Assembly: GCA_963835065.1 (NCBI GenBank)
Contig: CAWIEK010000044.1
Coordinates: forward strand, 448,001 to 512,000
Reading direction: 5' to 3'
Origin: an uncultured Chthonomonadaceae bacterium
GTDB taxonomy: Bacteria > Armatimonadota > Chthonomonadetes > Chthonomonadales > Chthonomonadaceae
DNA: 64,000 bases
A program made the position numbers and the translations under genes. Positions 5,796-14,235 of this stretch are shown piece after piece. The stretch's first letter is position 1, and each line of letters opens with the position of its first letter. The notes below the pieces were generated by a model. The model was not told the origin of the DNA and searched no databases. It saw only the letters and a list, made by a program, of their open reading frames with translations.

Positions 5796-5811
5796 GGGGC
5801 AGACAATGATC

Positions 5812-5883
5812 GAGTGCTGAATGATGAATGATGAGTGATGAATAACACGATGCAGTTTACTCATCATTCATCATTCAGCACTC
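5812..5883. repeat. Perfect 25-bp inverted repeat built from ATGATGA-type heptamers
   Basis: GAGTGCTGAATGATGAATGATGAGT (5812-5836) pairs with ACTCATCATTCATCATTCAGCACTC (5859-5883), between convergent genes. Confidence 0.9.
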
Positions 5884-5899
5884 ATCACTTCAAGAACCC

Positions 5900-6649
5900 T
5901 CAACCTGTTCTAATATCCCGCAGGTACTTCACGTGGCCGTCGAGGAGCAGGCGATTGCGCCCGCCCGTATGGACGGAAACGCCTTTGAGGTCGGCGGGAA
6001 CGGTGGGAATGGTGCGCGGAAAGTAGGGGTCAACGGCCATTTCCACGTCGGCGGGGCCGTCCGGGATACCGGCTTGCGGGTTGTTCGCCTGCTTCAAATC
6101 CTCAACAGCCTGCGTTTCAGTTTTGCCCCAAAACTCGTCTAAGGGCGTGGGCACGTCGGGACGGTCGAAGCGCCACAGCCAGTAGCGCACAATGGGCGCG
6201 TCGGGCGTAGCGTCGAGCGCCTGCGCCACTTGCGGCGTTTTGCTCATAACGCTGCCCGCCACGCTCGGACAGTTCCAGATAGCCTGATTATGGGTATAGG
6301 GCTGAAGCGTCAGCGCGGCCCATCCACTGCGCGGGTCGGAAGTCGGCCACGTCGTCCAGGGCTTGTACCCGCCCGGAAAAGCCGTTTTCAGGTCGCGGCG
6401 ATCCGGCATCAGTTCGTCATAATCCTGTATGTACATCGCAAACGCGGTTCCAATTTGGCGCAAATTGGACAGACACGCCGCCTGCCGCGCCTTTTCGCGC
6501 GCCTGCGCAAAGACCGGAAACAGAATGGCGGCGAGAATCGCAATTATGGCGATCACGACGAGCAATTCGATTAAGGTGAAGGCGGTATTGAGTGTTGGGT
6601 GTTGGGTGTTAGTATTTTCGATTTTCGATTTTCGATTTTCGAGTGGCAT
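5900..6649 (-). CDS. Prepilin-type N-terminal cleavage/methylation (DUF1559-like, H-X9-DG) protein
   Basis: [46 protein letters not shown]-terminal [15 protein letters not shown]. Confidence 0.92.
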
Positions 6650-9423: not shown

Positions 9424-9547
9424 TAGTTGATAGTTGATAGTTGATAGTAGCTTCCCGCGTACCAGGGATATCTTCGTGCAAACGTTACGCTCGAAAGACG
9501 AATCTACAGCAGGACACTATCAACTATCAACTATCAACTATCAACTA
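9424..9547. repeat. Paired heptamer arrays TTGATAG(n) ... CTATCAA(n)
   Basis: TAGTTGA x3 at 9424-9447 and CTATCAA x4 at 9517-9546, inverted around a unique spacer. Confidence 0.9.
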
Positions 9548-10963
9548 CCTCAACACGCCGCCATTCCACCAACCGCACAGGAAGTTGCTGTTGATGGCGG
9601 CGACCGTATTGTTCAGCGTACACAGGGATACGCCGGACGGCAGCGCGGCGGTATCGCCCAGGACGCCGTTTGCCAGGTAAAGCACCTGCGCGACGGTATA
9701 GCCGGACAGGGGCCCGCACGTTACCTGCAAATCCGCCAGGCCGCAGCGGGTTGCGCCCGCGTCGGAAATGTCCACGTTCAATTGCAGCGCAGTCACTTCC
9801 CCGGCCAGGCTGCCCGCTTCGATCCCACACGTCGGATTGACATAACTGCGCGTCAGTTTGCCGGGCATGCCACACTGCGGCAGGAAGTTCACGATGTCAC
9901 ACGCTTTTTTGTACGTGATCGTTTTTCCTCGGCCCACTGTCAGGCCGTTGGGATACAGACAGGTGTAAAACTTGTCTATCCAGGCAGTCAGGCACGAGCA
10001 GTTGATAGGCGTTCCGTACTCGCACTGCGTAAACGTGATGAACGGCGCGCAATTTTTCGCCAGGCAAAGCAAAAAGTTTTCGTTTACATAATTGGTTCCT
10101 CCCGTAGTCGCCGCCACTTTCAGGGACACGCAATTGAGCAGGGTCGCCGCCGTACCCGGCAGAGCGTTGTCCGCGCTCAGGCCGCAGGGAACGATTTCCC
10201 GGACCGTGTACGCGCCTGCCGACTCGTTCATAAAGCAATAGCTGCCGTTAATGTCGCTTGCCGTCGTGTCCACCACATTGCCGCTGCCGTCCATGAGTTG
10301 CAGGCAAACATCGCTCAGTCCCGGCTCGCCCGCTTGCAGGGTTCCATTGCAATTGATGTCGCGGTACACCACGCCGCAGATATTGACCGGCTGAACAACA
10401 GGCGGCGGCGGTGGCGGAGCCTGTTGCGTAATCAGAAAGTCGTTGGGCGTATAGCTGTCGCCCTCCGTCAGCGCGGGAATTTGAATAGTGGTATTGCTGA
10501 CCTTCACGCCAACAGGGTTAGCGCTCACGATGACAAACCCGCTTGCTTCCATGCCCGGAAGCGCGTTTGTCGCCGTGTAGCCTGTCGGTATCGTTGCCAG
10601 CTTGACCGTGTAGGTTCCCGGCGTCAGGCTGCCGAATGTATAGCTGTGATCTCCTCCCGGTCCCGTATATGCCGAGGCCACCAGGGTATTAGTAGTGTCG
10701 TACAAGTTGACCTGTACGCCGGCAAGGGGAGTTTCCCCCGCGTCCAAAACCCCGTTTCCGTTCGCGTCGTTATACACATGCCCGGCAATACTGGTGCCGC
10801 CAACGTCCGCCTTTGCCCAGGTGGGCGTAAGCAGCGTCAGCCCTGCAGCAAGCGCCAGGGAAAGCATCGCGCGTAAACCAACACGCCTCGCGCTTCCGCT
10901 TCGCCCGTTGCCCCGCCCCGTCGTCCGAATACATGCGCTGTTAAAGAATGTGCTGTTAAAAAT
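9545..10963 (-). CDS. Secreted surface protein with two SdrD B-like domains, poly-Pro linker and Cys-rich C-terminal domain
   Basis: GHVYNDANGNGVLDAGE and GVVYRDINCNGTLQAGE repeats; signal peptide ending AKA. Start is uncertain: ATT 10963 after GAGGAA, or ATG 10867. Confidence 0.8.
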   Translation of the reverse strand: MFNSTFFNSACIRTTGRGNGRSGSARRVGLRAMLSLALAAGLTLLTPTWAKADVGGTSIAGHVYNDANGNGVLDAGETPLAGVQVNLYDTTNTLVASAYTGPGGDHSYTFGSLTPGTYTVKLATIPTGYTATNALPGMEASGFVIVSANPVGVKVSNTTIQIPALTEGDSYTPNDFLITQQAPPPPPPVVQPVNICGVVYRDINCNGTLQAGEPGLSDVCLQLMDGSGNVVDTTASDINGSYCFMNESAGAYTVREIVPCGLSADNALPGTAATLLNCVSLKVAATTGGTNYVNENFLLCLAKNCAPFITFTQCEYGTPINCSCLTAWIDKFYTCLYPNGLTVGRGKTITYKKACDIVNFLPQCGMPGKLTRSYVNPTCGIEAGSLAGEVTALQLNVDISDAGATRCGLADLQVTCGPLSGYTVAQVLYLANGVLGDTAALPSGVSLCTLNNTVAAINSNFLCGWWNGGVLR

Positions 10964-11020
10964 GGCTCTTTCCTCGATGCCGCCACAGCCAATTACTGCG
11001 GCAGCAGGGTAACGGTCCTT

Positions 11021-11225
11021 TCGGCAGTTCGGCGACCGTAAGGTAAAGCGCTGAACGATGAGTGATGAGTGATGAATAAGGAGAACTTGTGTTGAGCGCG
11101 TTGTTCGTGAGAACATAGACGGCGCAACACAAGTTCACTCATCATTCAGCATTCATCATTCAGCACTCCCCCTGTTAGGTCCGTAACTTTGCGCCACCGG
11201 CTTTCACCGGGTTTGCCCGTTCGGT
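11021..11225 (-). ncRNA. c-di-GMP-I (GEMM) riboswitch with long P3 insertion, copy 1
   Basis: Minus strand GGGCAAACCCGGT-GAAA-GCCGGTGGCGCAAAGTTACGGACCTAA...TACGGTCGCCGAACTGCCGA matches the GEMM layout: GCAAA, GNRA P2 loop, GCAAAG junction, CCUAA/UACGG receptor. Confidence 0.85.
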
Positions 11226-11301
11226 TGGAGCCTCTGATTTACGATGTGAGTACGGTGTCTTCTATCTACTGTCTTCTGCCTTCTGCTTCTATCTTTTCCC
11301 C

Positions 11302-12031
11302 TTACGCCTTGCGGCGGCGAATGGCGAACGCGCTCAGGCCGACCAGGCCGGAAATCATCAGGCTGACCGCGCCCGGTTCGGGCACGTTGGCCGGGCCAAT
11401 CAGAACTCTGGCCGGTTGTGGACGTGGGATGAACCGCATCCAGGAACGTCGCCGTGCCGGCGAAAGTGGTTGGCAAGTGGTCAAGATAGCCGGTATTGCT
11501 GCTATTGGTTATAAACCCTTTGATGGTGTTGTAATTGTCATTGCTTGCGTCATCGCCAAGCACGCTGGTAAATTGGAAGTTTCCGGCATTTAGGTTGATG
11601 CCCTGAACGCCGTAATCATATTCCACTTCCCAGATAGCGATTTGAAGCGCGGCTCCTTTCGCTGCGCTGCCGCCCACGCCTGCCGCAAAGGTATCGTACA
11701 GGTAAGCGATCTGGGCGCCGCTTGTTGGAAATGCCGTCTTGATGTCCTTCGGGTTAAGCGTCTCCGTCGGCTGAAGGAAATGCCCCAGATCGACACAATA
11801 CGAGTCAAAGTTGGTGAACGCGATTCCCGGTCCGACGACGTTTGTAGCGAACGGACCGGCATACGACGTGTTCCCATTGACCGGTGTGCCTCCATTGACG
11901 CTGCTGTACGAAAAGCTAATTCCGTACCCGGGAATGATGCGATCTGTGGTCGTCATCGTAATCTGCGCCTGCGCGCTGACGGCTGCCCCGGACAAAGCAA
12001 GAACGGCAAACAGAGAGTGTAGTTTTCGCAC
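11302..12031 (-). CDS. PEP-CTERM sorting-domain surface protein; apparent +1 frameshift near 11404
   Basis: GTG start after AAGGAG, signal peptide ending AQA, SYCVD and ALQIAIWE motifs. VPEPGAVSLMISGLVGLSAFAIRRRKA lies in the shifted frame. Confidence 0.88.
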
Positions 12032-12060
12032 GGTTTGGCTCCTTACTGACATGCTCCGAC

Positions 12061-12265
12061 TCGGCAGTTCGGCGACCGTAAGGTAAAGCGCTGAACGATG
12101 AGTGATGAGTGATGAATAAGGAGAACTTGTGTTGAGCGCGTTGTTCGTGAGAACATAGACGGCGCAACACAAGTTCACTCATCATTCAGCATTCATCATT
12201 CAGCACTCCCCCTGTTAGGTCCGTAACTTTGCGCCACCGGCTTTCACCGGGTTTGCCCGTTCGGT
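12061..12265 (-). ncRNA. c-di-GMP-I (GEMM) riboswitch with long P3 insertion, copy 2
   Basis: Base-for-base identical to 11021-11225; lies 30 nt upstream of the PEP-CTERM start codon. Confidence 0.85.
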
Positions 12266-12716
12266 GGGAACCGTTTAGATGCGAATTCTAACCGCGCTTG
12301 GTTTATGCGCGGCTGAACGATGCTAATTCTGGCTGGATAGGAGCGGGACATTCCCCGCAAAGCTAGGGGAATCAAGATGCAGGGCGATACGTAACGCGCA
12401 AACCGGCAAAGGAACGAGGGAACGCGGGAAATTAGGGTGAATTGGATGCAGTATCGGCATTGCGGCAGGGGCGGAACGTGCTATAATGAAGGCGAAACGT
12501 CCGCGCTGTCAGTGTTGGGCTTGCGCAGCGGCGAAGCGGGAAAGATTCCTGTTTTTTCTGTTAGTGACTTTCAACAAAATAGCTGTTCCAGTCCGCGAAG
12601 GCAGGCTTCGTTATCACAGCCGCGAGAAGAAATTTAGATTAGGTACTCACGGCATGGCATAGAATACTTGCGGATAATGGGGAGCAGGTTCGCGGCGTGG
12701 CGGAGCGAGGCATGAG

Positions 12717-13274
12717 GTGAGGCTATTTGTCGGCAATTCCAGACGGCAATTCGAGCAGCAGGCGCAAACAGTTTTTGCCCCGCTGTATCAGGCCGCTTTG
12801 CGCCTGACGCGGCAGGTCGAATGGGCGGAAGACCTGACGCAGGACACGCTGATCCGCGCCTACGAGCGCTACGATTCGTTTACGCCGGGAACCAACTTCC
12901 GCGCGTGGCTGTTTACTATACTGACGCACACGTATTTGAATGACTGCGAACGCGCCAAGCGCCGTCCCATCACGGCCAGTTACGCAGCAACCGCCGGCAG
13001 TCCCGAATGGGAATACGCCGACCAGGACGCGGAACACGACCCTGTGACCGCCCTGATGACGCAGGTATTGGATGAGCGCCTGCAATCGGCGCTGGACACG
13101 CTGCCGGAAGAATTTCGATTGGCGATCATTCTGGTGGATTTGGAAGAGTTACCCTATCAGCAGGCGGCGGAAGCCCTGCATGTGCCCATTGGAACCGTGC
13201 GCTCCCGCGTCTTTCGCGGGCGTTCGCACCTGCGCGCCGCGTTGGAACCCCAGCCCGCCGCGCAGCGTCCATAA
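12717..13274 (+). CDS. ECF sigma factor (SigH/RpoE-like)
   Basis: AEDLTQDT, FTPGTNFRAWLFTI and PIGTVRSRVFRGR motifs. Confidence 0.93.
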   Translation: MRLFVGNSRRQFEQQAQTVFAPLYQAALRLTRQVEWAEDLTQDTLIRAYERYDSFTPGTNFRAWLFTILTHTYLNDCERAKRRPITASYAATAGSPEWEYADQDAEHDPVTALMTQVLDERLQSALDTLPEEFRLAIILVDLEELPYQQAAEALHVPIGTVRSRVFRGRSHLRAALEPQPAAQRP

Positions 13275-13343
13275 ACAATACACTTCCATAAGCGCGGCCT
13301 ACCCATACCTCCCGCGCCCAACCACCCTAATAACCAAATACCC

Positions 13344-13393
13344 GAACACCTGAATACCGACTGCACCTGAACACCTGAACACCTGAACACCAA
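13344..13393. repeat. CACCTGAA-type octamer tandem array
   Basis: GAACACCT/GAATACC units; same family at about 23772-23830, 35603-35660, 36888-36993, 48301-48325 and 50441-50485. Confidence 0.85.
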
Positions 13394-13437
13394 CACCGCC
13401 GCTTTCAACGAAGAATACAGCAGATAAGGACAGCCGA

Positions 13438-14235
13438 TTGAATTCCGCGTGTCAGCAAGTCGAAACACTTCTTGAGGATTTTGTTACCGGACAGGGTGAC
13501 GCGAAAACGCGCCGCATGGTGCAAGCGCACCTGGACACCTGTTCCGCGTGCCGCGCCCGGATGCGCGAACAAACGGCCATTCGCCACCAACTGCGCCTGC
13601 TTGCAAAGCGGGATGTCGGCGTGAAGCCGCCCGCTCACCTGTGGGAACGCGCCGCCCGGACATGGGATGCCCGCGATGCGCAGAAACGCCGTGTCGGCAA
13701 AATGCGCTGGGCGCTGGCGGGAAGCTGTATGCTCTTGTTTCTCCTCAGCGCGGTCTGGGCCAACCTGACGGTCAGCCATGAGTTTCCTGTGGAAGCCGCG
13801 CTGCGCAATTTCCGGGAGGTGAAAACGCATCTTCCCATTCCGATGTGCGCCACCGCCGACGCCGACAAGGCTGCGCACTGGCTGCGCGATAATCTCAACG
13901 CCGAATTGCCGCCCATCAACCTTTCACTTTCGCGTGGCGAGTTGTTGGGCGCAGATGTGATTGCCACCCCGGACCGCCCCCTCGGACGCCTGCTGTATCG
14001 CACTCCCCAGGGAATTGCCGCCGTATACCTGGCTCCGAACAGCGGGCATTTCGCCCGAACAACGCAACTGCCCATCGGAAACCAAATGTTCCAGGTAAGA
14101 AACACGGTGGATGTGGGAATGTATGGGTGGGAAGCAAACACGGTAGGTTTCGGCCTGCTTTTAGACCAACCCATCAGCGCAGGACGCGCCACCGCCACCA
14201 ATGCGGCGCAGGCGACGGCGGAGAAGGAGCAGTAG
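13438..14235 (+). CDS. Zinc-binding (zf-HC2/ZAS) transmembrane anti-sigma factor
   Basis: HLDTCSAC motif, one TM helix and an extracytoplasmic domain; directly downstream of the ECF sigma gene. Confidence 0.88.
   Translation: MNSACQQVETLLEDFVTGQGDAKTRRMVQAHLDTCSACRARMREQTAIRHQLRLLAKRDVGVKPPAHLWERAARTWDARDAQKRRVGKMRWALAGSCMLLFLLSAVWANLTVSHEFPVEAALRNFREVKTHLPIPMCATADADKAAHWLRDNLNAELPPINLSLSRGELLGADVIATPDRPLGRLLYRTPQGIAAVYLAPNSGHFARTTQLPIGNQMFQVRNTVDVGMYGWEANTVGFGLLLDQPISAGRATATNAAQATAEKEQ

Follow-up and report, generated by a model that had tools for sequence, protein, structure and literature searches.

Riboswitches of class I for cyclic di-GMP (c-di-GMP-I, also GEMM-I; Rfam RF01051 and RF03167 in clan CL00126, with Vibrio cholerae Vc2 as the type) are built of two stems with a GAAA tetraloop, a receptor-like CCUAA/ACGG, a GCAAAG junction, a G at position 20 (G20) and a 3′ CUGCCGA. 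We analysed a stretch of 64,000 nucleotides (nt) from an uncultured Chthonomonadaceae bacterium (contig CAWIEK010000044.1, positions 448,001 to 512,000, hereafter the window), in which two minus-strand elements have these features and, like other c-di-GMP-I riboswitches, lie upstream of predicted exported or surface proteins. Unlike typical members, they have a 133-nt hairpin of heptamer repeats as the distal part of stem P3, which pulls the score under the curated cut-offs, and they are two exact copies at a spacing of 1,040 nt, with a separate gene behind each. Our reading, to which we give a probability of roughly 0.62 from the comparison of sequences, is that this would be a working c-di-GMP-I pair controlling two exported proteins, that the tip of P3 repeatedly takes heptamer hairpins, and that conversion between the aptamers carries the insert along.

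Heptamer repeats in structured RNA have been described before. Short tandemly repeated repetitive (STRR) heptamers were reportedly found by Vioque in 1997 in the RNase P RNA gene of heterocyst-forming cyanobacteria, and are said to be located in its P12 helix. Here too heptamers of a dispersed family occur in a structured RNA, the P12 of this genome's own RNase P RNA has such a hairpin, and the riboswitch insert has what defines an STRR-like element, i.e. pairing arms of period 7 from a dispersed genomic family. The likeness is one of description, and unlike the cyanobacterial case the present one concerns Chthonomonadaceae-related genomes, dozens of heptamer words, and also riboswitches and rRNA. 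In P6b of the Nostoc tRNA-Leu(UAA) group I intron, degenerate heptanucleotide repeats pair into a hairpin, two repeat classes occur at one site and the length varies with the repeat number (PMC3488679). The P3 heptamers likewise pair into a hairpin at a variable helix, whereas their host is a predicted ligand-sensing mRNA leader, with a paralogous pair that would be under conversion. A third relative is the intervening sequence (IVS) of 23S rRNA with a PF05635 gene: the three PF05635 genes of this genome are bracketed by repeat arms, and heptamer hairpins stand in its 16S and 23S rRNA, but the riboswitch insert is gene-less and its word is absent from all three PF05635 elements. Finally, gene conversion between neighbouring bacterial paralogues leaves copies within a species more alike than orthologues, with an identity that ends where the homology ends. 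The twin aptamers are in the same way closer within species than between and their identity stops where homology does, although the tract here is a non-coding RNA element with a repeat insert and the downstream genes are unrelated. A literature search, outside which most subscription papers and Rfam-era supplements lay, found nothing on heptamer inserts in riboswitches or on riboswitch gene conversion, and nothing on Rickettsia elements in transfer-messenger RNA (tmRNA) and RNase P.

Two predicted c-di-GMP-I aptamers with a long P3

The features of the two elements are as follows (coordinates of the window).

12061-12265, minus strand: predicted c-di-GMP-I (GEMM-I) aptamer with extended P3, copy 1, upstream of the PEP-CTERM gene (RF03167/RF01051 alignment, 205-nt identity)
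12081-12213, minus strand: heptamer-repeat hairpin with TGATGAR-type arms and a unique inner spacer, forming the distal P3 of copy 1 (RF03167 alignment, array scan, fold)
12257, minus strand: G20-equivalent of copy 1 (RF03167 alignment)
11021-11225, minus strand: copy 2 of the predicted c-di-GMP-I aptamer, with no difference from copy 1; it lies about 75 nt past the PEP-CTERM stop and upstream of the SdrD-B gene
11041-11173, minus strand: the same heptamer hairpin in copy 2, with a perfect 12-bp inner stem at 11083-11094/11125-11136 (sequence, array scan)
11217, minus strand: G20-equivalent of copy 2 (RF03167 alignment)

The RF03167 model (c-di-GMP-I-GGC) aligned to both copies over positions 1-80 of 80, around one local insertion of 137 nt in the P3 loop, with scores of 40.2 and 39.7 bits (E-values 1.4e-07 and 1.9e-07). 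The hallmarks that the initial annotation had read on the minus strand are present, namely GGGCAAACC, the GAAA loop, GCAAAG, CCUAA/ACGG and CUGCCGA. P2 is a GAAA tetraloop on a five-pair stem plus a C-U mismatch, and the P3 receptor is the variant CCUAAC/ACGG. The added P3 helix runs from just past the receptor strand to just before its partner; an extension had been proposed at roughly 125 nt, and while the extension is borne out its length is about 133 nt. The perfect inner stem of 12 bp, also proposed, could be located as listed above. The predicted fold of the element has a short P2 beside a single, very long P3; its energy is -91.8 kcal/mol (z -8.6), a value that 0 of 200 shuffled sequences reached. 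Matches to MIR862 (E 0.17) and SNORD83 (E 8.1) were rejected as chance caused by the long hairpin.

It may be noted that Rfam at gathering thresholds (59 bits for RF03167 and 35 bits for RF01051) returned 0 matches over the whole window, and that the run of RF01051 with the insert in place, which had been suggested, gave an alignment at 34.9 and 34.5 bits, just short of the cut-off. The shortfall follows the length of the insert, natural relatives with short P3 taking the place of an insert-free RNA: one such relative scored 63.6 bits, and copies 1 and 2 of a sister species of the same genus (G002) scored 35.0 and 33.3. Both copies are in the 5′ leader position on the coding strand of the PEP-CTERM and SdrD-B genes, an arrangement that is the same in G002. 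A GEMM core pattern run on the window's own assembly (G000; 8.0 Mb, 71 contigs, 91.9% complete) had 6 matches, of which only the twins had the 3′ motif; this pattern is non-exhaustive, as it missed a third GEMM-I aptamer that precedes a flgM-like gene (65.5 bits; the orthologue of the gene in a further genome, G001, matches TIGR03824). The genome-wide RF01051 search scored 150 of 942 candidate stretches.

As to the ligand, the G20-equivalent is a G in the RF03167 alignment, as initially claimed, and the call survives a register shift by one base because both neighbours are also G. The equivalents of the ligand contacts G20, A47 and C92 are G, A and C at the aligned positions, on a mapping to Vc2 numbering by motif. 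In Vc2, G20 recognises G-alpha of the ligand and G-beta is paired with C92; the affinity of the wild type, which has G20, is picomolar for c-di-GMP and 10 uM for cyclic GMP-AMP (cGAMP) (PMC6140456). A47 is a further contact (PMC5888326). The signature of GEMM-Ib, which senses 3′,3′-cGAMP, is an A at position 20; a G stands there and at both neighbours.

That the aptamers are dead, or sense 3′,3′-cGAMP in place of c-di-GMP, is hardly probable at all. In its favour are the mismatch at the base of P2 and one particular GGDEF domain: of 19 GGDEF matches in G000, 15 were examined, and 13 of these have the canonical Asp, 1 was unparsed and 1 (C53:312788-313261) carries Ser at the Hypr site, its best match among solved structures being 6D9M with the serine in register. 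A serine there is the Hypr signature of cGAMP synthases (PMC6456294), and cGAMP may thus occur in this cell. The domain belongs to a membrane HD-GYP/GAF-like/GGDEF protein (L130:1157-3859; the non-GGDEF labels were given by eye), a candidate cGAMP synthase. Against this alternative, position 20 is G in all three GEMM-I aptamers of G000, the Vc2 affinities given above differ widely in favour of c-di-GMP, and the aptamer halves are 94-95% conserved between G000 and G002 while the upstream spacer is far more diverged. G20 favours c-di-GMP as the predicted ligand, and the aptamers are likely a functional c-di-GMP-I pair. This is also supported by the model alignment over the full length, by the canonical Asp in at least 13 of the 15 GGDEF domains examined and by the flgM-like gene behind the third GEMM-I aptamer.

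Identity of the copies and comparison with the sister species

The stretches 11021-11225 and 12061-12265 agree in 205 of 205 letters, just as first reported, with 0 extension of the identity on either side. A genome-wide blastn of the 205-mer, which the initial annotation had called for, found no third full copy in the G000 assembly. The possibility of an assembly artefact had also been raised there, and we compared contigs of four sequencing runs (X1 to X4) with the window. The duplication is real, because the independent strain X1 has the element as a separate piece with exact ends at about double depth: a single 206-nt contig spans exactly 12061-12265 at a depth of 14.3 (6 substitutions and 1 gap relative to the window), and three flanking contigs, with depths of 5.3, 7.7 and 8.5, all end 30 letters inside the element. 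The flanks of this strain differ from the window by 1-4%. At the mean flank depth the predicted value is 14.4 for two identical copies and 10.3 if the differences are confined to one copy.

It is very unlikely that the duplication is real and its exact identity an effect of assembly or polishing, by which one copy was overwritten. For such an effect speak at least one probable single-base error nearby (an extra base near 11404), the base of P3, which in X1 is like copy 2 and in the window like copy 1 of G002 as if the genomes held two variants, and the fact that among the runs compared the two copies are never spanned by one record. On the other side, the X1 depth better fits two identical copies, and an X4 contig matches 11064-11232 with 0 differences, the flank letters specific to copy 2 included. 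In X2, whose records leave the middle of the element uncovered, the flank contigs part from the window at an offset shared by the two copies (11043 and 12083), 7 letters before the contig ends, which suggests one variant common to both copies. Even slightly differing copies would, moreover, have one insert family, unlike those of G002. There are ten other exact twins of at least 100 nt within 3 kb of each other in G000 (11 places), some with heptamer hairpins, and therefore short-range identity is not unique to the riboswitch locus.

In G002 both riboswitches are present before the same two genes, each with orthologous flanks of its own. Since both positions and the distinct flanks are kept in the sister species, the duplication is, as judged from these sequences, old and the letter identity recent. 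The 78-letter aptamer cores show 0 differences within G000, 1 within G002 and 4-5 between the species, and the species-specific letters are common to both copies. The twin identity was likely made by gene conversion. The initial annotation had left it at copied or homogenised, and the retention of both sites with their flanks in G002 favours the second. A recent tandem duplication of a riboswitch-gene unit was considered and rejected, as the genes are unrelated and both sites are in G002. At least one conversion event in the G000 line, over the whole 205 nt, would be the minimum, and X1 points to at least one more. The P3 base, in a few letters only, looks as if conversion had gone in opposite directions in the window strain and in X1.

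The inserts themselves differ. Between the motifs, G002 has a GGGAAAA-type hairpin in copy 1 (82 nt) and a GGATGAR-type hairpin in copy 2 (163 nt), as against 143 nt in G000, and when the 509 hairpins of G000 are ranked by likeness to the G000 insert these two would come 144th and 110th. The word of the G000 riboswitch has 115 matches in G000, 4 in G002 and 0 in both G001 and G016 (another genome used for word counts), while the GGATGAA word has 163 matches in each of G000 and G002; by these counts, the insert in each species is a word common in its own genome. Short P3 stems are found elsewhere in the family. A close relative (L026/L043), with a near-identical aptamer before a PEP-CTERM gene, is the short-P3 case of 63.6 bits mentioned above; P3 is short in 15 of 17 loci from two collection scans, the other 2 being the G002-type locus; and in about 29 other family aptamers the P3 spacers measure 22-87 nt, and inspection by eye showed no heptamer array in them (3 were mis-ended and 6 loci unparsed). 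The P3 hairpin is thus likely a replaceable and tolerated passenger, replaced more than once. GEMM-I aptamers with P3 spacers of 60-87 nt and no evident repeats are G000:C43:51207-51334, L017, L034, L010 and L031, those of G000 and G001 preceding flgM-like genes. Tandem GEMM-I pairs about 200 nt apart were seen in G019, G021 and G006, and there are family genomes with up to 10 aptamers.

A genome-wide family of heptamer hairpins

The G000 genome contains 2,307 arrays of period 7, compared to 17 in a locally shuffled genome, and periods 5, 6 and 8-11 give 110-578. Among these arrays are 509 hairpin pairs, of which 56 have the word family of the riboswitch on the first arm. The G-rich arm comes first in 506 of the 509, the reverse order being almost absent, and the inner spacers are mostly unique (an identical twin exists for 15 of 487 hairpins of at least 80 nt). 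One member stands free in the window:

5810-5891, no strand assigned: free-standing hairpin of the same heptamer word family with another inner spacer (array scan)

The same repeat family had been placed by the initial annotation at 5812-5883; the family holds for the repeat arms, but not for the inner spacer, and the free copies in general resemble the riboswitch insert in the arms only. Heptamer hairpins lie by the hundreds in ordinary spacers and some lie in reading frames. They are scarce between divergent genes (22 of 276 gaps vs 713 of 3,445), and arrays are apparently read in frame in or at the start of proteins at L033:732-2861 (a PMT-family glycosyltransferase orthologue in G002) and at 5900-6649 of the window (a DUF1559 protein). 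Intron-containing tRNA calls by ARAGORN that overlap arrays were judged spurious.

Other structured RNAs carry such hairpins. The RNase P RNA of G000 (C46:28064-28509, L057) has an AGGCATT-type hairpin in P12; of 38 family RNase P loci examined, 30 could be parsed, and the P12 region is 20-34 nt in 20 and long in 10, with differently worded period-7 hairpins in 7. A cobalamin riboswitch of G000 (C49:773319-773528, L058) has a GACGATT/AATCGAA hairpin in its variable region, and hairpins of this kind occur in 4 of 11 cobalamin matches, the 11 being chosen for length from 45 (similar inserts in L108, L109 and L115). In the rRNA (C51:114802-121114, L127) there are two in 16S and three in 23S; of these, the hairpin close to the 3′ end of 16S belongs to the word family of the riboswitch insert. 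No heptamer array was detected in the thiamine pyrophosphate, S-adenosylmethionine (SAM), tmRNA and flgM GEMM-I elements of G000, and no flavin mononucleotide riboswitch was found. The SAM-I riboswitch of G000 (C50:219797-219970, L126) has a 61-nt non-repetitive hairpin in its P3. Invasion of the aptamer by a repeat element, as initially proposed, fits the data as regards an origin in a dispersed family (2,307 arrays) and fails as a one-off event, given the RNase P, cobalamin and rRNA cases and the other hairpins of the sister species.

Three PF05635 four-helix-bundle genes (C25:14102-14416, C8:32017-32325 and C33:57207-57524) each lie between a G/A-rich and a C/T-rich repeat arm, and three PF13366 (GxxExxY-type) genes of G000 have arms of longer period. 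None of these elements has the riboswitch's word, and the insert of 133 nt lacks a four-helix-bundle gene, by which a PF05635 element would be recognised. In a wider scheme, a mobile element organised around the IVS four-helix-bundle gene would have given rise to the heptamer hairpins, as derivatives that lost the gene and that would home to or swap at RNA helix tips (RNase P P12, rRNA, cobalamin and c-di-GMP riboswitches), so that this locus would record three different hairpins at one P3 tip across the two sister species plus paralogue copying in opposite directions in two strains; we hold this to be speculative and on balance doubtful.

RNase III excises IVS hairpins from rRNA, and the hairpin could by analogy be a working part, either as an RNase III substrate that processes or destabilises the leader and uncouples the cistrons, or as a stabiliser of the P3 fold, with its shape selected and its sequence free. 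We find this improbable. Four of four copies in two species having a long hairpin of unrelated sequence, arrays about 2.2-fold denser in structured RNAs, the G-rich arm first in 506 of 509 hairpins and the bracketing of 3 of 3 PF05635 genes (of the 23S rRNA intervening-sequence protein, IVP) by such arms are all in line with it; the short P3 of the near-identical aptamer before a family PEP-CTERM gene, the P12 helices of only 20-34 nt in 20 of the 30 parsed RNase P RNAs and the hundreds of hairpins in ordinary spacers or even reading frames are not. Growth in place is another option, whereby the heptamer units in the two arms of an already existing long P3 would multiply through replication slippage and hairpin-templated repair. 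The unique spacers, with identical twins for only 15 of 487, and the lack of any target-site duplication seen would agree with it, and so would the flgM riboswitches of the family, whose P3 spacers of up to 87 nt without evident repeats mean that a long helix could precede the repeats. Yet each riboswitch has a word that abounds among the free elements of its own genome, period 7 dominates over the other periods counted, the polarity is fixed, and the IVP genes lie inside the same kind of arms, so we regard growth in place as quite improbable, more so than a working hairpin.

Downstream genes, mechanism and meaning

The two genes and the sites between them and the aptamers are listed below.

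11302-12031, minus strand: PEP-CTERM protein gene (TIGR02595 on the G002 orthologue), its frame shifted near 11404
12039-12044, minus strand: Shine-Dalgarno-like AAGGAG, 7 nt before the likely GTG start at 12031 and 16 nt past the aptamer end, kept in G002
10978-11006, minus strand: 11-bp hairpin that separates copy 2 from the GAGG of the SdrD-B gene; G002 retains the pairing despite changes on both arms
9545-10963, minus strand: protein with two SdrD B-like domains (PF17210), a signal-peptide-like N-terminus and an uncertain start codon; the G002 orthologue is 81% identical

Two unrelated surface-protein genes had been expected downstream, and both are there, the PEP-CTERM gene being frameshifted. 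One extra base near 11404 shifts its frame, and the frame that follows ends in a PEP-CTERM tail; the intact G002 orthologue matches TIGR02595 at 17.6 bits (cut-off 16). An assembly error, or a change peculiar to this strain, probably accounts for the shift, because the base is absent from X1 and X3 and the G002 orthologue is intact. Long open reading frames through the aptamers (9545-11116 and 11204-12178) were rejected as real N-termini. At 10961-10975 on the minus strand, GAGG precedes an in-frame ATT by 8-9 nt in G000 as well as in G002, an insertion or deletion lying directly upstream of the ATT, and an AUU start of the SdrD-B gene is possible. A scan found 3 promoters and 3 terminators against 1.9 and 4.6 expected, none of them tied to the aptamers. 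Terminator-like sites are absent near the aptamers, and ribosome-binding sites occur a short way downstream of them; the PEP-CTERM and SdrD-B genes are therefore probably in one transcript and under translational control.

Beyond copy 1, the spacer before a divergent gene for an extracytoplasmic function (ECF) sigma factor contains another dispersed repeat, similar to repetitive extragenic palindromes (12567-12627; 31 blastn matches in the genome and many metagenome contigs), which was not seen at the corresponding place in G002. The divergent sigma factor and its zf-HC2 anti-sigma partner (12717-14235) are syntenic in G002, and this pair may or may not drive the riboswitch operon.

A number of points weigh against our reading of a working pair with an exchangeable, converted insert. 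The aptamer scores lie under the Rfam cut-offs (40.2 and 39.7 vs 59 bits; 34.9 and 34.5 vs 35 bits), the first P2 pair in G000 is a C-U mismatch and the receptor is a variant, although similar departures occur in natural relatives with short P3. Constrained folding changed the accessibility of the ribosome sites by -0.15 and -0.19 in G000 and by +0.01 and -0.05 in G002, a direction inconsistent between species. Of 42 family genomes searched for the locus with the SdrD-B protein as query, only two species have it (two others gave partial matches), and the replacement reading therefore rests on three inserts. As the word of G002 copy 2 is one letter from that of G000, these two inserts could be one old insert with a drifted unit. 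A hairpin is present in each of the four copies of the two species, which exceeds what chance alone would produce. Nine structured RNAs hold 12 arrays vs 5.4 expected at non-coding density, for which the nominal p=0.009 is an overstatement as the arms are paired. Neither a target-site duplication nor a mobilising enzyme was found for the riboswitch word family. Lastly, the X1 depth predictions overlap across the flank range (10.7-17.0 for identical vs 7.7-12.2 for differing copies), and the X1 contigs drop variants.

On our reading, an ancestor would have had an aptamer with short P3 before a PEP-CTERM gene, its SdrD-B gene being preceded by a second copy. Repeat hairpins of the word family then spreading in the lineage may have entered or replaced the P3 tip, where they would face away from the pocket that binds the ligand. 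A conversion tract could have been anchored in the identical aptamer halves, which lie 1,040 nt from each other, taking the insert with it and stopping at the limit of homology. The switches would act on the translation of both exported proteins, probably in one transcript.

The riboswitch pair with heptamer inserts is well supported as real by its sequence, while the riboswitch class, the types of gene regulated and gene conversion are each ordinary, so that the surprise is moderate; what the locus contributes is the replacement series together with the homogenisation. The heptamer inserts hide riboswitches from standard annotation, as 3 of the 4 copies of the two species miss the RF01051 cut-off. 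On nearly one aptamer there is a natural series of a short P3 and three unrelated inserts, which suits the question of whether such hairpins are neutral, have a regulatory role or serve as RNase III substrates; in the last case, the riboswitches would be split into two-piece aptamers and would be mRNA processing sites. The locus also offers a handle on how heptamer hairpins move, a question standing since the cyanobacterial STRR reports. A predicted ligand-sensing aptamer can carry, and apparently exchange, an insert longer than itself.

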